DNA of 64,000 bases, taken from positions 416,001-480,000 of the forward strand of contig CAWDVR010000004.1 in NCBI GenBank assembly GCA_963805975.1, written 5' to 3'. Source of the stretch: an uncultured Acidobacteriota bacterium (GTDB taxonomy: Bacteria > Acidobacteriota > Thermoanaerobaculia > Multivoradales > SZUA-115). Both the position numbers and the translations under genes were made by a program. Under the pieces are notes generated by a model. It was not told where the DNA came from and did not search any database. It saw only the letters and a list, made by a program, of their open reading frames with translations. Below are positions 37,108-52,894 of this stretch, piece after piece (positions within the stretch are counted from its first letter, which is position 1; each line of letters begins with the position of its first letter).

Positions 37108-39381
37108 ATGGGACGCAAGCCAAGAGCCGGGCGCTCCGGCCCCCGCGCACCGATCCTGCCCTTCACCGAGGTCGAGAGGGTACCGCTCGCCGTCTTCACC
37201 GAGAAGGCGTACCTCGACTACTCGATGTACGTCATCCTCGACCGCGCCCTGCCGCACGTGGGCGACGGCCTGAAGCCGGTGCAGCGGCGCATCGTCTACG
37301 CGATGAGCGAGCTGGGCCTCTCGGCGCAGGCCAAGTTCAAGAAGTCGGCGCGCACCGTGGGCGACGTGCTGGGCAAGTACCACCCGCACGGCGACACCGC
37401 CTGCTACGAGGCCATGGTGCTGATGGCGCAGCCCTTCTCCTTCCGCTACCCGCTGGTCGAGGGGCAGGGCAACTGGGGCTCGCAGGACGACCCCAAGTCC
37501 TTCGCCGCCATGCGCTACACCGAGGCGCGCCTCACCCGCTTCTCCCAGACCCTGCTCTCCGAGCTCGAGCAGGGCACGGTCGAATGGGGACCCAACTTCG
37601 ACGGCACCCTCGAGGAGCCGCGCCTCATGCCCTCGCGGCTGCCGCACGTGCTGCTGAACGGCGCCTCCGGCATCGCGGTCGGCATGGCGACCGACATCCC
37701 GCCGCACAACGTCGGCGAGCTGGTCACCGCCGCCCTCCATCTGCTCGACCATCCCAAGGCGACCTCCGCGGACCTCGCCGCCTTCCTGCCCGGCCCCGAC
37801 TATCCGACCGAGGCCGAGATCATCTCGGGGCCGGAGGAGCTGCTCGCGATCTATGAGACCGGCGCCGGCAGCGTGCGCCTGCGCGCTGCCTGGGAGATGG
37901 AGGGCAACGACGTGGTGATCACCGCGCTGCCCTACCAGGTCTCCGGTGCCAAGGTGCTGGCGCAGATCGCGGGCCAGATGCAGGCCAAGAAGCTGCCGAT
38001 GGTCGAGGACCTGCGCGACGAGTCGGACCACGAGAACCCCACGCGGCTGGTGATCACCCTGCGCTCGAACCGGGTCGAGGCCGAGCCCCTCCTCGCACAC
38101 CTCTTCGCCACCACCGAGCTCGAGCGCACCTACCGCGTGAACCTGACGGCCATCGGCCTCGACGGCCGGCCGCGGCAGTACGACCTCGCGACGCTGCTCT
38201 CCGAGTGGCTGGCTTTCCGCATCGAGACGGTGCGGCGGCGCCTGCGGTTCCGCTTCGACAAGGTGCTGGCGCGGCTCCACCTCCTCGAGGGCCTGCTGGT
38301 CGCCTACCTCAACCTGGACGAGGTGATCCGCATCATCCGCACCGAGGAGGAGCCGAAGCCCGTGCTCATCGAGCGCTTCGGCCTCTCCGATCTCCAGGCC
38401 GAGGCCATCCTGGAGACCAAGCTGCGGCACCTGGCGCGGCTCGAGGAGATGAAGATCCGGGGCGAGCAGGACGGCCTGCTCAAAGAGCGCGACGCGCTGG
38501 ACCAGTTGCTGGCCTCCGAAGGCAAGCTCAGGCGCCGCGTGCGCGAGGAGCTCTCCGCCGACGCCGCCGAGTTCGGCGACCCCCGGCGCTCGCCGATCCG
38601 CCGGAGAGAGGCGGCGCGGGCGCTCGCCGAGTCCGAGCTCCTGCCCTCCGAGCCGGTCACCGTGATCCTCTCCGAGAAGGGTTGGGTGCGCGCCGGCAAG
38701 GGCCACGACGTCGAGGTCGAGGGCCTCGCCTACCGCGGCGGCGACTCGTTCCTGGCCGCCGCCAGGGGGCGGAGCAACCAGCTCGCGGTGTTCCTGGACT
38801 CGACCGGGCGCTCCTACTCGCTTCCCGCCCACACGCTGCCGGGGGCGCGCGGCCACGGTGAGCCGCTGTCCTCGAGCTTCACACCGCCGGCCGGCGCCTC
38901 GTTCGTGGGCGTGGTGCTCGGCAGCGAGGACGACTGGGTGCTCCTCTCGACCACCGCCGGCTATGGCTTCGTGGCGCGGCTCGCGGACCTCTTCGCCAAG
39001 AACAAGGCCGGCAAGGCGGTGATCTCGGTGTCGGCCGGCGCGAAGGCCCTCGCTCCGCAGCCGGTGTCCTCGCTGGATGGCGACGAGCTGGCCGCGGTCA
39101 CCGACGCCGGGCACCTGCTGGTCTTCGCACTGGCCGAGCTGCCGCAGATGCCGCGCGGCAAGGGCGTCAAGATCCTCAACATCCCGCGCTCCAAGGGCGG
39201 CACCGAGTCTCTGGTGGCGGCGGCGGTGCTGCCGGACGGCGCCACCCTCCGCATCCACGCGGGCAAGGGCTACACCAACCTCAAGGGCGCCGAGCTCAAT
39301 CCCTTCCGCGGCGCCCGCGCCCAGCGCGGCATTCTGCTCTCGAAGAACTACCGCCGGGTCGGGCGGGTCGAGGTGGTGTAG
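37108..39381 (+). CDS. parC: DNA topoisomerase IV subunit A
   Basis: [48 protein letters not shown], catalytic AAMRYTE; short C-terminal domain. Confidence 0.93.
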
Positions 39382-39386
39382 ATGTG

Positions 39387-39416
39387 GTTGACTCATCACC
39401 ATGAGTCAACTATGAT
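39387..39416 (+). promoter_or_regulatory. Sigma-70 promoter overlapped by a palindromic operator
   Basis: TTGACT-N17-TATGAT; perfect inverted repeat GTTGACTCAT-CACC-ATGAGTCAAC. Confidence 0.8.
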
Positions 39417-39423
39417 CCTCGGT

Positions 39424-39678
39424 ATGAGTAAGCGGCTCCAGGTGCTGTTCGAAGAACCCGAGCTCGACGAGATCCAGCAGGTGGCTCGTGGCCAGCGGAT
39501 GACGGTGGCCGAGTGGGTTCGCCAGACCTTGCGAACGGCAGTCCGCCAGCAGCCGGTCCAGGCACGCAAGTCAAAACTGGACGTAGTCCGGGCGGCGGCT
39601 CGGCACCACTTCCCGGCCCCCGACCTCGAGCAGATGCTGGCCGAGATCGAGCAGGGGTACCCCAGAGCACTGCCTTGA
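39424..39678 (+). CDS. Ribbon-helix-helix (VapB-like) antitoxin
   Basis: MSKRLQVLFEEPELDEIQQVARGQRMTVAEWVRQTL; overlaps the PIN toxin start. Confidence 0.8.
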   Translation: MSKRLQVLFEEPELDEIQQVARGQRMTVAEWVRQTLRTAVRQQPVQARKSKLDVVRAAARHHFPAPDLEQMLAEIEQGYPRALP

Positions 39679-40070
39679 CCTTCGTGGACTCGAATGTGCC
39701 TATGTACCTCGTGGGCGCGCAGCATCCCAACAAAACCGTGGCGCAGCGGCTCCTCGAGGAACTGATCCAGGCCGAGGAACGGCTGGTGACAAACGTCGAG
39801 GTGCTGCAAGAGATCCTGCACCGATACCACGCGATCGCCCGGCCCCAGGCGATCCAGCCGGCGTTCGACTCCCTGCTCGGCGTGGTGGACGAGGTGTTCG
39901 CCGTCGAGCTGCCGGACGTACAGCGGGCCAAGGACCTGCTGCTGGCCACCGCGGGCCTTTCGGCTCGCGACTGCCTCCATGTGGCGGTCATGGAGCGGTA
40001 CGGCGTCGACCGGGTTCTGAGCTTCGATGCCGGCTTCGACCAGATCGCCGGCCTCGAGCGGCTGCGGTAG
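39675..40070 (+). CDS. vapC: VapC-family PIN domain toxin
   Basis: FVDSNVPMY, EVLQEILHRY, LSARDCLHVA, SFDAGFD. Confidence 0.87.
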   Translation: MTFVDSNVPMYLVGAQHPNKTVAQRLLEELIQAEERLVTNVEVLQEILHRYHAIARPQAIQPAFDSLLGVVDEVFAVELPDVQRAKDLLLATAGLSARDCLHVAVMERYGVDRVLSFDAGFDQIAGLERLR

Positions 40071-40118: not shown

Positions 40119-43115
40119 CTACTGCGTCACAACGAAGCTCTGCGTGCTGGTGGCGGAGCCGGCACTGGTCGTGACCCGGATCGGCCCCGAGGTTGCCCCG
40201 GCCGGCACTTCGGCGGAGAGGAAGTTCGGGCCCGCGAAGAGCACGAACGGTGAAGCCACGCCGTTGAAGAAGACCTGGGACGGGTCTTGGAAGTTGGCGC
40301 CCTGGATGGTGATGCGATCACCGGGCCGGCCGCTCGGCGGGTTGAAGAGGGCGATCGACGGCCCGCCGCCGGCCGGTGTGACCGTGAACGGCGTGAAGCT
40401 CGCGCCCGTGCCGCTCGCGTTGGTGACCCGGATGGGCCCGGTGGTGGCGCCGTTAGGGACGGTGGCGAGCAGGTTGCCGTTGGGGAGCCTGGGGAAGGAG
40501 GCTGACGGCACGTTGTTGAAGGTCACCGCGGTCACGCCGGTGAAGTTGAGGCCGAGGATCTCGACCTGGGTGCCGAACGGGCCGGAGAACGGGCTGAAAC
40601 CGTTGACCACCGGGGTGCCGGCGCCCACCGCGGTCACGATGAGCGAGACCGGCACGGTCACCACCGGCGCACCCGGCGCGGTCACCGTGATCGTGGCGCT
40701 GTAGCTGCCCGCGGCGAGACCGGCGACGTTGATCGAGACGTTGGTGGCACCAGGGGTGGTGCCGGCAGCCTGCGACAGGTTCACGAAGGCGGAGTTGTCG
40801 GACACAGACCAACTGAGCGGCGCGGCGCTGGAGCCGATCTGCAGCACCTGCACGGCCGGCGCCGGCCCGCCCTGGGGAGCCGTGAAGCTGAGGCTCGGAG
40901 GAGAGACCGTGAGGCTGCCGGCCGGGGGCGGTGGGGAGGTGAGGGTCAGCGAGACCGGCACGGTCACGTTCGGCGAGCCGGACGCCGCCAGCGTGATCGC
41001 GGCGTTGTACGTGCCGGGGACGAGGCCGGCGATGTTGACCGACGCGGTCAGGGCGCCGGGAGTGGTCCCCGAGGCCGGGTTGAGGGTCAGCCAGGACGCG
41101 TTCTCCGTGGCGCTCCAGCCGAGGACCGAGCCCGTGCTGCCGATGGTCACGGCGCGCGGTGCCGGGTTGGCCCCGCCGGGGACGGCGGAAAAGGAGAGTG
41201 AGACGGGGCTGGTGGTGAGGTTGCCGGCCAGCGGTGGCGGTGGCGGCGGCGCGGGCGGGCGCACGACGGTGAAGGCCCCGCTGTCGCCCATCACCACCAC
41301 CTGGCCGGCGGAATTCTTGGCGATCACCCGCAGCTTCGCGCTCGCCATCGAGCCCGACGGAGTGGGGACCACGAAGTTGAGCGACCGCTGCCCAGCCGGC
41401 AGGTTCTTGCCGTTGAACAGATCCTGCCAGGTCCCGCCGTCGAAAGAGATCTGCACGTCCTGCGAGCTGATGGCCGCGGTGCTCCCGGCAATGCTCCACG
41501 CCGCCATCGCAGCCTGACCCGAGGTCAGCGTCGAGCCGCCAGCCGGCGCGGTGACCGCGATCGGCGGCCGCCGCACCTCGATGGTGACCGTCAGCGGCTC
41601 GATCTCGTAGTCGTCGCTGTCGGCGCCGATCATGTAGTTGAAATCGCCGTCCCGGGCGTCCGAATCGGCGGTGATCTCGATCCGGGCGAGGTTGCCCAGA
41701 CCCGGCTGCAGGGTGAACATGTGGTTCAAGTCCTGGGGGTCGACGGTCGTCAGCTCGACCTCGCCCGTGTAGCCGGGAGAGCAGCCGAACACCGTGCCGC
41801 GGTCGAGGTTGAGGAGGAAGTCCGTCATCATGCCGGGCTCGACCTGCGGGTTGGCGGCGAGGTTGGTGCTGAGCGTCAGCCGCGGGGGAGCGGCCTTCAC
41901 TTTCAGGCTGGCGGTTTCCTGGTCGGTCACGGTGCGGCCGTTGACCGTCACGCTCCCCTCCACGGTGAGCTGGTAGGTCTGCTCGGCGGCGGCGGGCGGC
42001 ACTTCGACCTGCAGCTCGGAGGGCACCTCGCTGCTGGCTTCCGTGATCGCCACCGAGGCCGGCGTGAAGCCGACGCTCATCGTGTTGGGCAGGGCCGGGT
42101 TCGACCCGGACAGGCGAAGGTTCACCGTTCCCTGGAAGTTGGCGGGGAAGTTGATCGGCGTGACCTTGAGGCCGAAGCGCGCACAGGTCGAGCGCCGGGC
42201 GTCGAGCGAGCCGGGCTCGATGGTGATCGCCAGCCGCTCGGCCTGGGGCACGGGAAGCACCGCCAGGTTGACGGTGGCCGAGACCTTGTCGGCATCGGGG
42301 GCGACCAGCGACGGCGACACGGTGAACGAGAAGGGGCCGGCGGGCGTTGTCGGCTGCGTCCGGACGAGGAGCACGGCGGTGTGCTGGTCGTCGGGGTTCG
42401 CCGAGGCCGGAATGGTGCGCGGGGTCAGCTCGGCGTTCTGGAGGGCGGCGGGCACCGTGAGGTTGAGCGTGATCGGCCCGAGGTAGCCGCTACGCTTCAC
42501 GACGACGTTATAGGTGGCAGTGGTTCCTGCCGGTACGACCAGCGAGCCCGGCGTGGCCGAGACCTCCACCCGGGGCTTGGCGATGGCCAGCCGCACGCCG
42601 CCGACCCGCTCCTGGACGGGCACGCAGATCGCGCACCTGCCGATGAGGTCGAATCTGTAGGTGTTGGGCGGCGTGTCGAACTGCGAGGTGAGCGTCACCG
42701 TGTACTTGCCGCAGTCGCCCGTGTCTCCGGGGCCGCAGGTGCGGATCTCTCCTTCGGCGCAGGCCCGCGCCTTCCGCTTGGGCGTGATGGTGCCGGTGAG
42801 CCTGGCGTTGAGCCCTGCCGGGTCCGGGCTCAGCCGGACCGTGACGCAGGTGGCCTCCAGGACGCCTCCCCGCTCCACGCCCACGAAGCGCTCGAAGGTC
42901 GCCGGCTGGCCCCCGGGAATGGGCTGGACGAGCTGCGGCCCGATGTCCGGGTCGCCGACCAGTCGGATGGCACCCGTGCCTCCTCCGCCCGGAGGCTGGG
43001 GCACGGGCTTCTGGGGCTGGACCTGCGCCCAGCAGAGTGCCGAAGTGAGAAAGACGGCGAGCCAGATCAGGGCGGCTGCCCGGAGAGCCCGGGCGCCGGG
43101 GGTGCTGTGTTGCAT
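40119..43115 (-). CDS. Large secreted multi-Ig-domain protein (BACON-like and IPT/TIG repeats)
   Basis: Signal peptide; two SP.SLSF.A..GG..P..WS...N.S.L..S...GTTP repeats; two F.P.SG..G..V.I.G.NF..V.FN.V..VP.GAT.GPIRVT repeats. Confidence 0.85.
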   Translation of the reverse strand: MQHSTPGARALRAAALIWLAVFLTSALCWAQVQPQKPVPQPPGGGGTGAIRLVGDPDIGPQLVQPIPGGQPATFERFVGVERGGVLEATCVTVRLSPDPAGLNARLTGTITPKRKARACAEGEIRTCGPGDTGDCGKYTVTLTSQFDTPPNTYRFDLIGRCAICVPVQERVGGVRLAIAKPRVEVSATPGSLVVPAGTTATYNVVVKRSGYLGPITLNLTVPAALQNAELTPRTIPASANPDDQHTAVLLVRTQPTTPAGPFSFTVSPSLVAPDADKVSATVNLAVLPVPQAERLAITIEPGSLDARRSTCARFGLKVTPINFPANFQGTVNLRLSGSNPALPNTMSVGFTPASVAITEASSEVPSELQVEVPPAAAEQTYQLTVEGSVTVNGRTVTDQETASLKVKAAPPRLTLSTNLAANPQVEPGMMTDFLLNLDRGTVFGCSPGYTGEVELTTVDPQDLNHMFTLQPGLGNLARIEITADSDARDGDFNYMIGADSDDYEIEPLTVTIEVRRPPIAVTAPAGGSTLTSGQAAMAAWSIAGSTAAISSQDVQISFDGGTWQDLFNGKNLPAGQRSLNFVVPTPSGSMASAKLRVIAKNSAGQVVVMGDSGAFTVVRPPAPPPPPPLAGNLTTSPVSLSFSAVPGGANPAPRAVTIGSTGSVLGWSATENASWLTLNPASGTTPGALTASVNIAGLVPGTYNAAITLAASGSPNVTVPVSLTLTSPPPPAGSLTVSPPSLSFTAPQGGPAPAVQVLQIGSSAAPLSWSVSDNSAFVNLSQAAGTTPGATNVSINVAGLAAGSYSATITVTAPGAPVVTVPVSLIVTAVGAGTPVVNGFSPFSGPFGTQVEILGLNFTGVTAVTFNNVPSASFPRLPNGNLLATVPNGATTGPIRVTNASGTGASFTPFTVTPAGGGPSIALFNPPSGRPGDRITIQGANFQDPSQVFFNGVASPFVLFAGPNFLSAEVPAGATSGPIRVTTSAGSATSTQSFVVTQ

Positions 43116-43233
43116 GGCAATGCTCCTCTCATCCTCGAAAAAGGATCGGATTCGGCAGCGGGTCGAGCCCGCCGCCTTGGGTTCGGGAGAGGAGGTTCCG
43201 CGGGCTGGTGCTTTTGGTTAGGCGGGTGAGGCG

Positions 43234-43270
43234 AAAAAGAAACTCCCCGCCCGACACAGGAAGGGCGGGG
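43234..43270 (-). terminator. Intrinsic terminator after the CHAT-associated small ORF
   Basis: Minus strand CCCCGCCC-N10-GGGCGGGG followed by AGTTTCTTTTT. Confidence 0.65.
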
Positions 43271-43286
43271 TGCAGGGCGGCTGCGC

Positions 43287-43505
43287 TCAGACCCGCGGCG
43301 GCGGGCCCGGGTCCGGCCAGGACTGCGAGCCCGGGCTGGGCTCGCTCATGATCCCGTCGTCGTTCTTGTCCGGCGGCGGCACGGCGACCGAGCTCGTGCG
43401 CCGCCCGAAGAGGCGGGCCAGGAACTGGAAGAGGCGATGCAGCAGGTTCGGACGAGCGGCGGAGTCGCGGGCCCCGGATGGACGCGGCCCAGAGAGAGTC
43501 GCCAT
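43287..43505 (-). CDS. 72-aa small protein downstream of the CHAT protease
   Basis: Strong RBS GAGGAAGGAG; amphipathic LLHRLFQFLARLFGRR; Pro/Asp-rich tail; followed by a terminator. Confidence 0.6.
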   Translation of the reverse strand: MATLSGPRPSGARDSAARPNLLHRLFQFLARLFGRRTSSVAVPPPDKNDDGIMSEPSPGSQSWPDPGPPPRV

Positions 43506-43565
43506 ATCTGCTCCTTCCTCGGGAGAGGTCTCCCGGTCCAGGCTTGAAGAGTGTGTTGCTCTACC

Positions 43566-46500
43566 CTACCGCCAATCGCCCTGGAGCACGAAGCCGGCCC
43601 AGTAGGAAGGCGAGCCCCAGGCCGGCACCTGCCGCAGCTCGGCCTGGGCCTGGCGGAGCGCCGCCGCGGCCGGCTTTCCCTCGGTGAGCAGCGCGCGGTA
43701 GAAGCCCTCCATCAGCTCGGCGGTCGCCCGGTCGTCCACGCGCCACAGGCTCACCAGCACGCGCTCGGCGCCGGCGGCCATGAAGCTCCGCGTCAGGCCC
43801 ACCAACCCCTCGCCGCGGACCTCCTTGCCCAGCGCGGTCTGGCAGGCGGAGAGCACCACCAGGTCGGCGTTGAGGCGCAGGCCGGCGATCTCGGGCGGCC
43901 CCAGGAAGCCGGGGCGCGGGCGGCCCTCGCGGTCGACCTGGGAGAGCACCAGCCCGGTGCGCTCCGGGTGCTCGCCGTCGAGCACGCCGTGGGTTGCGAA
44001 GTGGAGCAGGCGGTAGCGGCCGAGGGCACCGGAGAGGGCCGTATCGAGGTTGGCTTCCGGCCCCAGGGCGACGAGCGCCTGCCCGCGCGGCACCAGGGCG
44101 AGGACCGCGGCGGCCTCCTGGCGCGAGAAGGCGAGGCGCGGGAGATCGGGACCGAAGACCGGGTCGGCGAACATCGCGAGCGCGGCCGGTGCCGGCGGCC
44201 GAAGGCCGAGCTCGCGCCGCAGCAGCGCCAGCGACGAGGCGGAGGGCAGGGTGACGATCTCGTGCGCGGCGAGGAGCGGCGCCGTGCCGCCCGGCTCGGG
44301 CAGGGCGGCGAAGGGCAGGTAGTGGAGGGCGCCGTCCGGCACCACCAGCAGTCGTTTGCCCCCGGCGTGGCGACCTGCCAGAAGCTGCGCCGCCGGCGCG
44401 AGCAGCAGGCGGCTGAGCTCCGCCGTCGCCAGCTCGGCCCCGGCCCTGGCGGCGCGCCGGTGGCTGGCGGCGAGGAGGGTGTGCGCCTCGCGGGCCAGCG
44501 CCTCGATCTCGGCCCGGCCCGGCAGCTCGAAGCTCCGCACGATGGTGGGAGTCACCGCCCAGAGGAAGCTCCGTTCGGCGCCCAGGGCATACTCGAGAAG
44601 CAGAGTGTCGTCGTCGAGCACCTCGCTCTGCAGCTCCTCGACCGAGAGTGGTCGCGGCGTGGCGAGGGCGGCGTAGCCGGGGTGCGCGAGGCGGGTTTGC
44701 ACCTCCGTGCGCCGCCGGCCCGCGGGCGCGCCGCCGCCCGTCTCGGCCAGGGTGTCGAGCAGGCTCCGAGCGCGGGCCCGTTCCGCCACGGCCAGTGCGG
44801 CGCGGTCGTGGCCCCGGCCGGGACGCCGGCGGTCGAGGTCCATCAGCAGGCCGATCAGCTCTTCGTAATAGCTCTGCCGCGAGGCCTGGTAGGACATGCG
44901 AAGGCCGGCGCTCAGAGGCTCCTCGCGCTGGGCCTCGATCCCCTGCACGGCAAGCTCGAGGCTCTCCCTCGCGCCGTCGAGATCTCCCGACCGCGCGAGC
45001 GCCCGGCCCAGCCCCAGGCGGGCGCTCGACTCGGAGCCCCGCTCGCCGGTGGCAGCGGCGAGCGGCAGGGCGAGGCGGAAAAGGCGCGCCGCCTCGGCAG
45101 GTTCGCCGCGGGCGTCCGCCAGCCAGCCGAGGTTGACGAGCACCGTGCCCTCGGCGCGGCGATCTCCCAGCTCACTCGCGAGCGCCAGCGCCTGGCGGTA
45201 GCAGAGGCCGGCCTCCTCGAGGTGGCCCAGGCGCCGATGGGCGAAGCCCAGGTAGGCGAGCATCACCCCCTCTTCGCGCCGGTCGCCCGCCTGACGCTGG
45301 AGAGTGAGCGCCTCTTCGAGATCGGCCACGGCGCCGGGGTCGCCGAGCGCGGTGCGCGCCGCGCCCACCCGGCTCAAGACCACGGCCAGAGGCCCGCGCT
45401 CTCCTCTCTCGCGCAGCCCCGGGAGGGCCTGGAGGAAGAGCTCGAGGGCGGCCCCGGGCTCGCCGAACGAGAAGTAGACCCAGCCCTGGCTCGAGAGCGT
45501 CAGGCCCTCCTCCCGCCGGGCCCCGAGCTCGCGCCAGAGGGCCAGCGCCTGCTCGAAGCAGGCGAGCGCCTCCTCGGCCTCGCCGAGCGAGGTGAAGGCG
45601 TCGCCGAGGTCCACGAGCGTGGCGGCCTCGCTCCAGCGCTCGGCCGTGGCGCGGTGAAGGGAGAGCGCCCGGGCGTAGCTCGCGATCGCCTCGTGCGTCG
45701 CTCCGCGCCGTTGGGCGATCCCGCCCAGGCTGTGGAGAGTGTTTCCGGCGCGACGGTCCTCGCCCGCGGCCTCGAATCGCGCCAGCGCGCGGCGGAGCGA
45801 CCCGGCCGCCGGTTCGAGCGTGCCCGCCGCCGCGTGGCTCAGGGCGCGGTAGAAATCCACGTCGCCGCGCCGCGTGCTCTCGCCCAGCTCCGTCAGCCGC
45901 TCGTCCGCCTGGGTGTAGAGCGACAGCGCGTGGGAGAGCCCCGCTCCGCCCTGGCGCCGCGCCTTCTCAGCCGCCGCCAGCACGTCCTCGGCGGCGGAGC
46001 GACGGCGATCGTCCTCCGTCGCCGGGCGCAGAGCCGCGAGCTCCAGTCGGTAGCGGCCGGCCGGCGCTCCCGGGGTCGGCGAGCGGATCTCGATGCGATA
46101 GGCGCCTGAGACCTCCGCAGCCAGCGGCAGCGGCTCGCGGCCGGTGTTGCCGTTCGGGCTGTCGACGACCCGCCGCCGCTCCCCGTTCGGCCCGAAGAGC
46201 GCCACCTCCACGTCGATCCCCTGCTGCTCCACCGCCAGGTCCGCCATCTCGCCGGCCGCGAGGTCCAGCCGGTAAGAATGAGCCTCGCCCCCGGCGAGCC
46301 CGGCCTCGACCAGCGTGCCGGTCTGCCGCGGGAGGGCGGTCGCCTGGTTCTCTGTGCTTTCGGGTATCGGGGGAGCCGGAGAGCAGCCGACAACGACAGT
46401 CAGCCAGAAGGCAGTACCGAACCTCGCGAGGAAAGCTGGATTCGCACTCGCCTTCCAAGGTGCTCTCCGCGGGGGCGCTGCGGGCGCGAGGGCAGCTCTC

Positions 46501-46613
46501 CTGCGAGGAGCGCAGGCCACCCGGCAGGGAGCTCGAGCACCGCAGCGGGAGAGTGCCCTCGCCCAAGCCCGCAGCAGGATGGGTCCGCTCCGGCGACGCT
46601 GCTGCAACTTCAA
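43566..46613 (-). CDS. CHAT-domain (caspase-like) protease with PPC-like N-terminal domain and TPRs
   Basis: Lipobox-like VVVGC; VEQQGIDVEVALFGP; TPRs; VPDGALHYLPFAAL, HFATHG, VVLSACQT, SLWRVDD, YWAGF. Start uncertain; TTG overlapping the anti-sigma stop chosen. Confidence 0.88.
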   Translation of the reverse strand: MKLQQRRRSGPILLRAWARALSRCGARAPCRVACAPRRRAALAPAAPPRRAPWKASANPAFLARFGTAFWLTVVVGCSPAPPIPESTENQATALPRQTGTLVEAGLAGGEAHSYRLDLAAGEMADLAVEQQGIDVEVALFGPNGERRRVVDSPNGNTGREPLPLAAEVSGAYRIEIRSPTPGAPAGRYRLELAALRPATEDDRRRSAAEDVLAAAEKARRQGGAGLSHALSLYTQADERLTELGESTRRGDVDFYRALSHAAAGTLEPAAGSLRRALARFEAAGEDRRAGNTLHSLGGIAQRRGATHEAIASYARALSLHRATAERWSEAATLVDLGDAFTSLGEAEEALACFEQALALWRELGARREEGLTLSSQGWVYFSFGEPGAALELFLQALPGLRERGERGPLAVVLSRVGAARTALGDPGAVADLEEALTLQRQAGDRREEGVMLAYLGFAHRRLGHLEEAGLCYRQALALASELGDRRAEGTVLVNLGWLADARGEPAEAARLFRLALPLAAATGERGSESSARLGLGRALARSGDLDGARESLELAVQGIEAQREEPLSAGLRMSYQASRQSYYEELIGLLMDLDRRRPGRGHDRAALAVAERARARSLLDTLAETGGGAPAGRRRTEVQTRLAHPGYAALATPRPLSVEELQSEVLDDDTLLLEYALGAERSFLWAVTPTIVRSFELPGRAEIEALAREAHTLLAASHRRAARAGAELATAELSRLLLAPAAQLLAGRHAGGKRLLVVPDGALHYLPFAALPEPGGTAPLLAAHEIVTLPSASSLALLRRELGLRPPAPAALAMFADPVFGPDLPRLAFSRQEAAAVLALVPRGQALVALGPEANLDTALSGALGRYRLLHFATHGVLDGEHPERTGLVLSQVDREGRPRPGFLGPPEIAGLRLNADLVVLSACQTALGKEVRGEGLVGLTRSFMAAGAERVLVSLWRVDDRATAELMEGFYRALLTEGKPAAAALRQAQAELRQVPAWGSPSYWAGFVLQGDWR
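46477..46575. repeat. Degenerate palindrome in the 5' region of the CHAT gene
   Basis: GCTGCGGGC-GCGAGGGCAGCTCTCCTGCG ... CGCAGCGGGAGAGTGCCCTCGC-CCAAGCCCGCAGC, an imperfect inverted repeat. Confidence 0.5.
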
Positions 46614-47404
46614 CGCGCCGGCCCGGGCCGCGGGTCGTCCACGATCCTCAGCGGGTACTCCTCGACCAGCTTCTCCTCTCCCGCTGCGGTGGCCAGGAGC
46701 CGCACCCGCACCTCGCCGTTCCCGGCCAGGCTCCTCGGCAGGGTCAGCGTGAAGGAGCCGAACGCGTTCTTGCGCAGCCCCTCGCCCTGCCACGCGAGGC
46801 CGCCGTCCGCCCGCCGCACCTCCACCCGGTAGGTGGCGTCGTCCGGGCTGCCGGGTGCGTTCAAGACCAGCGAGAGCCACCGCACGGCGGGCGCCAGCGC
46901 CAGCTCCCCTCGCTCCTCGGGCTCGCTCCGTGCTGCGCTCTGCGGATAGAGATCGAAGATCGGCGCGTTGACCTGCGGCCGGGAGAGGTCCGCAACCGTT
47001 CGCCGGAGCGACCCCACCCAGACCGAGAGCCCGAGCACCGCCGCTGCGAGCGACGCCGCCAGCGCGAGCGGCCAGCGCGGCGCCGGGGCTGCGCGGCGGC
47101 CGGCGACCGGCACGACTCGGCCTTCCGATCGAAGCTTCGGGGAGAGCGATTGCCAGGCGCCGTCGATCTCCGCCTGCTCCGCGGCCGACTCCGCCGGGCG
47201 CGGCGCGAAGCTCGCGGCTTCCTCGGCCAGCATCATGCAGTCCGGGCAGAGCGCCAGGTGCGCGCGCAGCAGATCGGCGTCCTCGCCGCCGAGCCGACCC
47301 GCCGCGAACCCGGCCAGCACCGCGGGCTCAGGGTGCGGCCCTCGCTGCGCCTCCTCGGCGAGCGTGCGGATCACCATCTCGACCTCCTTGCCGGCCTCGC
47401 TCAC
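46610..47404 (-). CDS. Zinc-finger (zf-HC2) anti-sigma factor with TM and extracytoplasmic beta domain
   Basis: HPEP..HLALCPDC; TM LALAASLAAAVLGLSVWV; coupled to the ECF sigma. Confidence 0.82.
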   Translation of the reverse strand: MSEAGKEVEMVIRTLAEEAQRGPHPEPAVLAGFAAGRLGGEDADLLRAHLALCPDCMMLAEEAASFAPRPAESAAEQAEIDGAWQSLSPKLRSEGRVVPVAGRRAAPAPRWPLALAASLAAAVLGLSVWVGSLRRTVADLSRPQVNAPIFDLYPQSAARSEPEERGELALAPAVRWLSLVLNAPGSPDDATYRVEVRRADGGLAWQGEGLRKNAFGSFTLTLPRSLAGNGEVRVRLLATAAGEEKLVEEYPLRIVDDPRPGPAR

Positions 47405-48039
47405 GCCTCCTCCTCACGGACATCGGGCAGGAAGTACTCGCCCAGCTCGTTCCGCAGGCGCTGGCGGGCCTGGAACAGGTGCGCCTTCACGGTGTCGATC
47501 GAGAGCCTGAGCCGGCCCGCCACCTCACGGTACTTGAGGTCGTGGTAGACGCGCAGCACCAGGCACGCCCGCATCTGCGGCGGCAGGCCCTCGACCGCCT
47601 GGCGCAGCAGGCGGGCGCGCTCCCGCGTCAGGCTGTCACCCTCGGGCGCTGCCGTCACCGCCGGCAGCTCGGCGGCCGGTCCGCCTTCCTCCTCGACGCC
47701 GCCGTCGAGCGGCACTTCCCGGCCGCGCCGCGAGCCCGCCTCCCGATGGCGCAGGCGCTTGCGGTAGACGTTGGCCGCCACGGCGAACAGCCAGGCGTCG
47801 AAAGGCGCATCGCGCCGGAACGACCCCATACCCCGGAAGATCCCGAGGAACGTCTCTTGGGTTAGATCCTGGCAGTCGGCAGGCGGGAAGCCGCGGCGCG
47901 CGAAGAAGTCGCGTACCGGGCGGTAGTAGAGGCCGAAGAGCCGTTCGTAGACCTCCTCGGCCGGCCGCCCGGCCGCTAGCGCGTCCAGCAGAGAGTCGAC
48001 CAGCGCGTCGTCGTCGCGCGTCGCGGTTCGGGTGGTCAC
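47401..48039 (-). CDS. ECF sigma factor
   Basis: DCQDLTQETFL, FDAWLFAVAAN, LPPQMRACLVLR, SIDTVKAHLFQAR; start uncertain. Confidence 0.88.
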   Translation of the reverse strand: MTTRTATRDDDALVDSLLDALAAGRPAEEVYERLFGLYYRPVRDFFARRGFPPADCQDLTQETFLGIFRGMGSFRRDAPFDAWLFAVAANVYRKRLRHREAGSRRGREVPLDGGVEEEGGPAAELPAVTAAPEGDSLTRERARLLRQAVEGLPPQMRACLVLRVYHDLKYREVAGRLRLSIDTVKAHLFQARQRLRNELGEYFLPDVREEEA

Positions 48040-48090
48040 GAGAGGGAGTACCGGCGGAGAGTGTACCCCGTCGACCCGGTGGCAATGGAA

Positions 48091-48207
48091 CCGGATGGAT
48101 TCCCGCTTTCGCGGGAATGACAGAGCTTCGTCTCGCAGCGCCACGTGCTACCACGTGCCAGCCGCTGCCAGCCTCCGTCGTTCCCGCGGAAGCGGGAATC
48201 CATCCGG
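48091..48207. repeat. Pair of inverted REP/RPE-like units
   Basis: CCGGATGGATTCCCGCTTTCGCGGGAATGAC ... GTCGTTCCCGCGGAAGCGGGAATCCATCCGG; 31-bp arms with 2 mismatches, each arm itself a hairpin. Confidence 0.8.
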
Positions 48208-48228
48208 CTACAGACGGTGAGGACGAGC

Positions 48229-51894: not shown

Positions 51895-52563
51895 ATGCGC
51901 TCGGAGAAGCTGACGACTCTCCTGCTGGTGGGCCTCTTGGCTCTCCAGACCGTCCTCTTGGGGGCCCTGCTGCGCAGGATCGGCGCTCTCGAGCGGACCG
52001 TCCTCACCGTGGTGGCGGGCGCGGCTCAAGGGGCCTCGGAAGTAGCGGAAGAGGCGACGGCGGTGGAGGTGGGGCAAGGGCCGATCCAGGGGGCTGCCGG
52101 GGCGCCGGTCACCATCGTCGAGTTCTCCTGTTTCACCTGCCCGGCCTGCGCCGACCTCCAGCCCGAGCTCAAGCGCACCCTCTCGCTCCATCCCGGCGAG
52201 GTCCGGCTCGCCTTCCGGTACTTCCCGTTGCGGCTCGAGGGCAAGCCCATGCTGCTCGCCAAGACCGGGGAGTGCGCGCGCCGGCAGGACAAGTTCTGGG
52301 AGACCCACGACCTGCTGTTCAGCAAGAGCGACGAGATCGAAGGCGAGGCGGAGCTGCTCGAGGCCGTCAAGCCCCTCGGCCTCGATCTGGAGCGGCTGGC
52401 GCAGTGCCTCGCCTCCGCCGAGGCCGAGGCGAGAGTGCGGGAGGACTTCGAAGCGGGCCGGAGCTACGGGGTGACCGGCACTCCGACGCTCTTCGTCAAC
52501 GGCAAGCGGGTCCTGGGCTCGGACCCGCGGATCCTCGATCGGCTCGTCGCCGCGAGCCTCTAG
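51895..52563 (+). CDS. Membrane-anchored DsbA-like thiol-disulfide oxidoreductase
   Basis: N-terminal TM; GAAGAPVTIVEFSCFTCPAC; FRYFPL; cis-Pro loop GVTGTPTLFVNG. Confidence 0.88.
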   Translation: MRSEKLTTLLLVGLLALQTVLLGALLRRIGALERTVLTVVAGAAQGASEVAEEATAVEVGQGPIQGAAGAPVTIVEFSCFTCPACADLQPELKRTLSLHPGEVRLAFRYFPLRLEGKPMLLAKTGECARRQDKFWETHDLLFSKSDEIEGEAELLEAVKPLGLDLERLAQCLASAEAEARVREDFEAGRSYGVTGTPTLFVNGKRVLGSDPRILDRLVAASL

Positions 52564-52633
52564 AAAGCACGGAGCCGGAAGGGACGTCCCGCGGCTCTTG
52601 CCGATCATCCACCCCGACCCAGGAGGAAATCCG

Positions 52634-52894
52634 ATGCCCGCCACCAGGTCCCGACTCGTGCCCTTCGCTCTCGCGACCCTCTTGGCCTTCTGCATGGTTC
52701 TCGTCGGGCTGTCGTTCGCGCCCCCGGCGACCGCCGCGCAGTGCACGCCGCCGGCGCAGAAGACCACCTACGGCTGCTGTAGCTGCAACATCAAGAAGGC
52801 GATCTACTGGCACTGCAACGAAGCGGGCAACTGGGTGCAGTCCGGCTCCGCGTGCCTGTACGGACAGTGCTGCGCCTATCCCTGCTGCGTGTAG
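52634..52894 (+). CDS. Secreted 10-cysteine peptide precursor (86 aa)
   Basis: RBS AGGAGG; ~35-aa Sec signal ending ATAA; predicted mature QCTPPAQKTTYGCCSCNIKKAIYWHCNEAGNWVQSGSACLYGQCCAYPCCV; codons almost all G/C-ending. Confidence 0.8.
   Translation: MPATRSRLVPFALATLLAFCMVLVGLSFAPPATAAQCTPPAQKTTYGCCSCNIKKAIYWHCNEAGNWVQSGSACLYGQCCAYPCCV

Follow-up and report, generated by a model that had tools for sequence, protein, structure and literature searches.

The closest described relative of the cassette analysed here is DdvS/DdvA of Myxococcus xanthus, in which a sigma factor of the extracytoplasmic function (ECF) type is paired with a protein that joins a zinc anti-sigma domain, one transmembrane helix and a periplasmic TPR-CHAT region with a His-Cys dyad (PMC11506125, PMC6061681). 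DdvA homologues are reported from Myxococcota and one Comamonas (PMC11506125, PMC6061681). RseP cleaves DdvA forms lacking TPR-CHAT (PMC11506125), and a role of the periplasmic CHAT domain as a site-1 protease was put forward in the DdvA work, which did not manage to demonstrate it. In Craspase (Csx29, Csx30 and CASP-sigma), which shares the TPR-CHAT fold, cleavage of a sigma inhibitor relieves inhibition (PMC10028731, PMC9729208). ECF54 sigma factors have conserved CHAT and TPR neighbours and a proposed proteolytic control (PMC8999054, PMC7826278). In the RpoE/RseA/RseB system of E. coli, the anti-sigma factor is single-pass, and a sigma-dependent promoter in the sigma gene drives the anti-sigma and its partner: rseAP3 sits inside rpoE and drives the negative regulators RseA, RseB and RseC (PMC8595263). 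Here we describe genes for an ECF sigma factor, a zinc anti-sigma factor and a separate TPR-CHAT protein in 64,000 nucleotides (the window) of an uncultured Acidobacteriota bacterium (Thermoanaerobaculia; Multivoradales; SZUA-115), positions 416,001 to 480,000 of contig CAWDVR010000004.1 in assembly GCA_963805975.1. Coordinates below are those of the window.

We propose, with a probability of about 0.55, that the TPR-CHAT protein is a dedicated site-1 protease that would cut the periplasmic loop of the anti-sigma factor, with RseP following, the sigma factor transcribing cargo, and anti-sigma and CHAT being made anew from an internal promoter. At rest, the zinc domain would hold the sigma factor and the TPR superhelix would keep CHAT inactive. 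CHAT would be activated by a signal from the envelope, probably a protein or peptide to which the TPR binds, and would then cut the loop, probably after Arg159. This cut would separate the membrane-tethered first strand from the rest of the immunoglobulin (Ig)-like domain and bare the stalk to RseP, which would complete cleavage and free the sigma factor. RseP, a site-2 protease, is encoded in the genome, and the anti-sigma factor is single-pass. Free sigma would transcribe the gene for a 998-amino-acid exported protein from a site at 43221 and, from a site at 47865 inside its own gene, would make new anti-sigma and CHAT without full-length sigma; thus the switch would reset. The principal features are as follows.

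47401..48039, minus strand: ECF sigma factor, 212 amino acids (Pfam Sigma70_r2 and Sigma70_r4_2 above cut-off; NCBIfam TIGR02937)
47836..47865, minus strand: predicted intragenic sigma-dependent promoter, CTAACCCA-n14-GGATCTTC, in the sigma gene (motif score 17.8)
46610..47404, minus strand: anti-sigma factor, 264 amino acids (zf-HC2 above Pfam cut-off)
46928..46930, minus strand: Arg159 of the anti-sigma factor, candidate P1 residue (conservation; coil with lower model confidence)
43566..46613, minus strand: predicted TPR-CHAT lipoprotein, start at 46613 or 46520 (Pfam CHAT, E 2e-70, and TPR_12)
46383-46385, minus strand: Cys of the lipobox VVVGC of CHAT (sequence)
43986-44003, minus strand: HFATHG of CHAT, with its His at 43989-43991 (sequence)
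43836-43853, minus strand: LSACQT of CHAT, with its Cys at 43842-43844 (sequence)
43192..43221, minus strand: predicted sigma-dependent promoter, CTAACCAA-n14-GGAACCTC, for the 998-amino-acid gene (score 13.4, reached by 0 of 200 shuffles)

A sequence-only reading of this DNA had reported an operon of sigma factor, zinc anti-sigma, CHAT protease and a 72-amino-acid open reading frame (ORF), and all four were confirmed at their positions by ORF and Pfam evidence. The cassette genes all lie on the minus strand. The same reading took the first three genes to overlap. This holds for the sigma and anti-sigma genes, which share 4 nucleotides (GTGA) at an anti-sigma start with a strong Shine-Dalgarno (SD) sequence. 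Because the CHAT start is uncertain, the second overlap depends on the start chosen: TTG at 46613, which overlaps the stop of the anti-sigma gene, is 77 codons upstream of the lipobox Cys, and GTG at 46520 is 46 codons upstream of it; neither has an SD sequence. The genome has a GC content of about 70%, and the closest named relatives of the sigma factor and of the small proteins are from Thermoanaerobaculia.

Linkage of the three genes is conserved. Relatives of the anti-sigma factor were found in 42 of 61 genomes of the order, from which we took 40 loci, 39 around the best anti-sigma matches and one around a match to the small ORF. The sigma gene is upstream in 39/39 loci and a TPR/CHAT gene downstream in 37/39; in a held-out set of 20 same-order loci, 18 had sufficient sequence, and CHAT is downstream in 14 of these. 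Loci of family f14, which belongs to the same class, have the TPR-CHAT gene divergent and upstream of sigma (20/20). Two of these CHAT genes are frameshifted, and the other 18, full-length, carry Cys-ended signal segments. The f14 loci look orthologous and count as one rearrangement. The idea that f14 is without CHAT (downstream in 1/18) was rejected, as the gene lies divergently upstream. Among 160 control sigma loci, 32 have an anti-sigma match, and CHAT is nearby in all four whose match spans the Ig-like domain. CHAT matches in the genome of the window number 22, in about 20 genes, and 10 of the 20 are at most 5 kb from a Sigma70_r2 match (7.5% for random places). The anti-sigma family is large, with 1413 representatives at 50% clustering (E up to 1e-30). 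Judged from these loci, the sigma/anti-sigma/CHAT cassette is widespread.

Several further observations concern the CHAT genes. Each of the 20 f14 genomes has 5-14 of them. An unannotated protein of about 350 amino acids with a conserved hydrophobic N-terminus is encoded directly after CHAT in at least 10 of the 20 f14 loci (L310-L329; L-numbers denote loci of relatives), and also in several paralogous modules of the genome of the window (G000 C3:2913-4028 and C2:108678-109763). Five CHAT genes cluster in a region of atypical codon usage (G000 C2:97000-119000).

The anti-sigma factor has a zinc-binding domain with the pattern H-x24-HxxxCxxC, its profile matching the zinc domains of ChrR and DdvA, and a single transmembrane helix at 47012-47068, placed by alignment and hydropathy. 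Its model (predicted local distance difference test, pLDDT, 87.8, from 36 sequences) comprises the helices of the zinc domain, one transmembrane helix and a beta-sandwich; a fold search with the ectodomain returned generic Ig-like matches only (best Z 8.4). The model puts this Ig-like domain in the periplasm, and CHAT has an export signal, in agreement with the earlier suggestion that the two lie on the same side of the membrane.

Arg159 sits in a coil loop of variable length that follows the first beta strand. It is kept in 81 of 83 anti-sigmas, as the best-conserved periplasmic position of that set, and in 134 of 138 further representatives, where it is second to one Pro among periplasmic positions; these 138 were chosen by a profile that includes the Arg159 position. 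R[GSA] is found in an 11-residue loop window in 75/83 and 111/138 sequences, compared with 18% of other windows, a count independent of alignment columns, and this pattern fits a P1-P1' pair. Separase cleaves after Arg (PMC11506125). Arg159 is thus a candidate for the CHAT cut site, although it could instead be a binding residue for a partner.

The TPR-CHAT protein was modelled with a pLDDT of 90.7 from 32 sequences. The model has a beta-sandwich at residues 14-121, TPR helices at 124-549, helices at 624-669 and the CHAT domain, and its top Foldseek matches are Csx29 (8EEY), separase and DdvA. The CHAT domain of DdvA is described as lacking the three-helix motif and as dimerising. A Pfam scan gave no match for the N-terminal beta-sandwich, for which 'PPC-like' serves as a label; compared with the beta-sandwich of the anti-sigma factor, it shows no homology (probability 5.9%). 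The dyad, His799 and Cys848, had been described as intact from HFATHG and LSACQT; both motifs are present, and the two residues are invariant in 32/32 sequences. The lipobox-like VVVGC, also noted before, agrees with a census in which 33/37 CHAT genes encode a hydrophobic N-terminal segment that ends in Cys in 26 and has a strict lipobox in 15. Lgt is encoded in the genome. The protein is likely exported and is predicted to be a lipoprotein. An apparent natural fusion of anti-sigma and CHAT in L074 was rejected as a frameshift because the internal signal peptide is kept and the end of the anti-sigma is garbled; this locus also has a tandem array of ~60-nt repeats between sigma and anti-sigma (L074:1450-1900).

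The sequence-only reading overlooked a promoter-like motif and also the likely target gene of 998 amino acids. The motif is bipartite, CT[AC]A[AC]C[AC]-n13/14-GG[AG]TCT, and was located after the CHAT stop in relatives. The first match of the search was a coding motif of the CHAT C-terminus, which was set aside and the search repeated without it. The matrix was trained on 31 loci, leaving out the window and its two closest relatives, G001 and G006 (genomes whose cassettes are closest to that of the window). Its Gibbs score is 404, compared with 278-288 for shuffled sequences; with each locus left out in turn, 26/31 sites scored above no fewer than 29 of the 30 shuffles, and 8/14 held-out loci pass. 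The copies are predicted to be sigma-dependent promoters. Nowhere in the 11-kb region does the motif score higher than inside the sigma gene, ~430 nt before the anti-sigma start (p 0.003 by synonymous randomisation). At this site the codon of Leu62 is CTA in 19/32 cassette sigmas, compared with 105 of 3384 Leu codons (3%) in their CHAT genes; CTA makes up 0.6% of Leu codons in this genome, and the other 20 Leu-rich columns of the sigma alignment have at most 2 CTA codons each. Where control sigmas share the peptide, the codon is CTA in 2/155; the figures are 3/5 for clade members among those matches and 5/13 for held-out loci. Within loci, the internal and the downstream copy tend to agree in their -10 boxes (80 matches, expected 68.7, 0/20000 permutations; 17 loci, whose kin are not independent). 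The 43221 site lies beyond the terminator-like hairpin, and G001 and G006 have it in the corresponding position. A motif score above 8.5 upstream of the sigma gene was found in only 2/33 loci, by which autoregulation of sigma from upstream is rejected.

Some results weigh against the proposed protease role and its promoters. CHAT is absent downstream in 2/39 loci and in 4/18 of the held-out loci, and its ambiguous start in the window would imply an n-region of 30-60 residues. The intragenic site reaches p up to 0.05 in only 14/33 sigmas; it is absent from f14 sigmas (CTA in 0/20), and the motif precedes f14 CHAT genes in 0/18. On the tree, sigmas with CTA group together, which makes a single origin possible, but their median identity is only 37%. 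A genome-wide scan gave no enrichment of the motif near CHAT genes (19/348 sites, ~4.8% expected) and defined no regulon; just downstream of CHAT genes in this genome, a score of at least 8.5 was found in only 2/20. DdvA dyad mutants behave like the wild type, no autoproteolysis was seen, and even for DdvA no CHAT cleavage of an anti-sigma is reported (PMC11506125). In separase, the P1 Arg is bound by the Asp D2151 (PMC9729208). The equivalent position appears to be Ala in 28/31 CHATs, in a weak profile alignment (E 0.2-0.3) whose mapping depends on the separase numbering used, so that Arg specificity of CHAT is uncertain. An Asp four residues after the Trp, shared with separase, is kept in 51/51. 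Separately, a conserved GTATC(T/G)TA stands a few bases before f14 CHAT start codons (L310-L329), possibly the -10 of a near-leaderless transcript.

In a rival reading, TPR-CHAT may be a co-inhibitor and sensor resembling RseB that shields the anti-sigma factor via its Arg loop until a signal or CHAT self-cleavage releases it, the first cut being made by a general periplasmic protease. Co-induction of anti-sigma and CHAT from the intragenic promoter would parallel that of RseA, RseB and RseC from rseAP3 (PMC8595263), and the TPR-CHAT of DdvA blocks RseP (PMC11506125). Binding hot spots can centre on a conserved Arg, and the TPR profile is closest, among natural proteins, to the peptide-binding TPRs of LGN/Pins. 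We nevertheless consider this reading unlikely, as the invariance of the dyad calls for a catalytic role and the small residue after Arg (G, S or A in 101/134 of the further representatives) fits P1'.

Alternatively, CHAT may be an output of the switch, an envelope protease induced by sigma that acts on foreign or cargo proteins, with the Ig-like domain of the anti-sigma factor sensing the signal. CHAT does lie downstream of the predicted intragenic promoter, a few sigma/anti-sigma pairs are without adjacent CHAT, and among the 25 relatives scanned, 10 have a clan-CD domain encoded in the first cargo gene. The cargo is exchanged freely, however, whereas CHAT stays even after the inversion, and no Ig-type anti-sigma of the control loci is without CHAT nearby. 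This alternative is improbable. A dedicated site-1 protease remains our preferred reading of TPR-CHAT, and the downstream genes are considered next as probable outputs of the switch.

43287..43505, minus strand: 72-amino-acid small protein, an amphipathic helix followed by an Asp/Gly/Pro-rich tail (AGGAG SD sequence; no Pfam family)
43243..43263, minus strand: terminator-like hairpin with U-run (sequence)
40119..43115, minus strand: 998-amino-acid exported Ig-repeat protein, likely output gene (Pfam TIG and BACON_2; BACON, IPT/TIG)

The strong ribosome-binding site reported for the 72-amino-acid ORF is its AGGAG, and the reported terminator was found as a hairpin with a U-run, although its folding is no better than that of shuffles (z -0.89). 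Homologues of the small protein occur in G001, in G006 and as one metagenome protein; they have the amphipathic helix in common (hydrophobic moment 0.83-0.94), and the protein likely binds the inner membrane face. An SD-led ORF of 35-110 amino acids is the first after CHAT in 24/33 cassette loci, compared with 42/1424 ordinary genes, and the encoded proteins lack signal peptides and have a high content of Asp, Gly and Pro. In the held-out set, under a looser rule, such an ORF was found in only 4/14 loci, and f14 loci have none after CHAT. Many of the small ORFs (L041, L043, L044, L048, L050, L054 and the window) encode a poly-proline stretch within a few codons of the stop, with a possible role in translation pausing.

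A sigma-type motif stands ahead of the small ORF in G001 and G006, but in the window there is none (score -1.4, 97/200 shuffles). Neither its own anti-sigma nor its own CHAT resembles the small protein in sequence, and cognate pairs score like non-cognate ones, by which mimicry of either protein is rejected. The peptide had been put forward for co-folding with CHAT and the anti-sigma factor; because it has no signal peptide and no likeness to these partners, and a promoter motif of its own in relatives, it looks like an output. It is probably an output rather than a substrate. That CHAT is cytoplasmic, with an incidental lipobox and the small protein as its substrate or inhibitor in the manner of Csx30, is very improbable: no good SD-led start lies near the lipobox in this genome or G001, and a protein without signal peptide does follow CHAT in most cassette loci, but the hydrophobic segments of the CHATs, Cys-ended in most loci and in the 18 full-length f14 proteins, together with the f14 loci lacking the small ORF and the absence of cognate likeness, argue for export.

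Only residues ~623-997 of the 998-amino-acid protein match its counterpart in G001; the first 620 do not. The first cargo gene, scanned in 25 of 33 loci, encodes CHAT in 6 (two with SAVED, two with SIR2), C25 in 3, C14 in 1, a kinase in 2, S8 in 1, a sigma factor in 1 and a weak Ig-like match in 1, with no match in 10. In relatives the switch would have as its targets a small protein that is disordered and, in many cases, clan-CD proteases that are cytoplasmic and carry SAVED or SIR2, cargo that suggests a role in defence.

Converging on the 998-amino-acid gene, at 37108-40070 on the plus strand, are genes for topoisomerase IV subunit A, a small protein and a PIN-domain protein, the last two likely a toxin-antitoxin pair; in G001 the topoisomerase gene adjoins the cassette without the PIN pair. 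On the other side, a REP-like inverted repeat lies just 5' of the sigma gene (48086-48212; 61 genome matches of at least 22 nt), followed by an SPFH/Band 7 gene pair on the strand of the cassette (50129-48229, minus), which was not seen at that place in G001. Further out, at 51895-52894 on the plus strand, are genes for a DsbA-like protein and a Cys-rich, secreted-looking peptide of 98 amino acids without a Pfam match.

DdvS/DdvA, rather than the Csx29/Csx30/CASP-sigma system that the sequence-only reading had taken as its model, is the closest known system. The CHAT protein matches the DdvA structure 8ROT (Foldseek E 1e-14) and the zinc domain matches 8RLZ (E 0.00085), and the two systems also share an AAC-type -35 and, in many relatives, defence-like targets. 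Unlike in DdvA, TPR-CHAT here is a separate predicted lipoprotein, with separate genes in the window and in relatives, and the anti-sigma factor ends in its own Ig-like domain with the conserved Arg loop. The -10 is GGA[TA]C[TC], not CGT, and the motif lies inside the sigma gene instead of upstream, where matches are rare. The DdvS/DdvA regulon is a defence island of CBASS and CRISPR genes, whereas the local target here is an exported Ig-repeat protein. CRISPR independence, part of the earlier claim, stands: Cas1 was not found in the genome, which is 96% complete, and no cas genes were identified among 14 neighbouring proteins scanned, in a scan not aimed at Cas7-11.

Craspase differs in that Csx29 is cytoplasmic, depends on Cas7-11 and RNA for its activation, and cleaves an inhibitor that is soluble, following Met or Leu (PMC10028731, PMC9729208); here there are an export signal and a membrane-bound zinc anti-sigma factor in a genome in which Cas1 was not found. 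ECF54 is actinobacterial and has no anti-sigma factor, with subtilase and carboxypeptidase-regulatory neighbours (PMC8999054, PMC7826278), whereas an anti-sigma factor is present here; other ECF groups with a CHAT context may be described beyond the compared part of PMC7826278. Within the literature covered, which mostly excludes subscription papers, we found no description of the split, lipoprotein form in Acidobacteriota, nor of the intragenic motif, its second copy before the 998-amino-acid gene, or the Arg159 loop.

DegS, the site-1 protease of E. coli, is an unlinked serine protease; the candidate here is a linked cysteine protease of clan CD. If correct, our proposal would add a caspase-family class of site-1 proteases and explain the expansion of TPR-CHAT genes in these genomes, and a promoter written in synonymous codons would cleanly illustrate how regulation can constrain a coding sequence. 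More tentatively, at somewhat below even odds, these loci would belong to a large, undescribed class of systems for envelope signalling. In this class the dedicated site-1 protease would be a lipoprotein of the caspase family that cuts its anti-sigma at an invariant loop Arg and is re-made with its substrate from a codon-encoded promoter, and the outputs would be proteases of defence type and small proteins that are disordered. The split system, which offers Arg159-Ser160 as a candidate bond, one catalytic Cys and two predicted promoters, makes the question left by DdvA testable with two soluble proteins. In its workings the cassette is like a split DdvS/DdvA, and unlike Craspase or ECF54.

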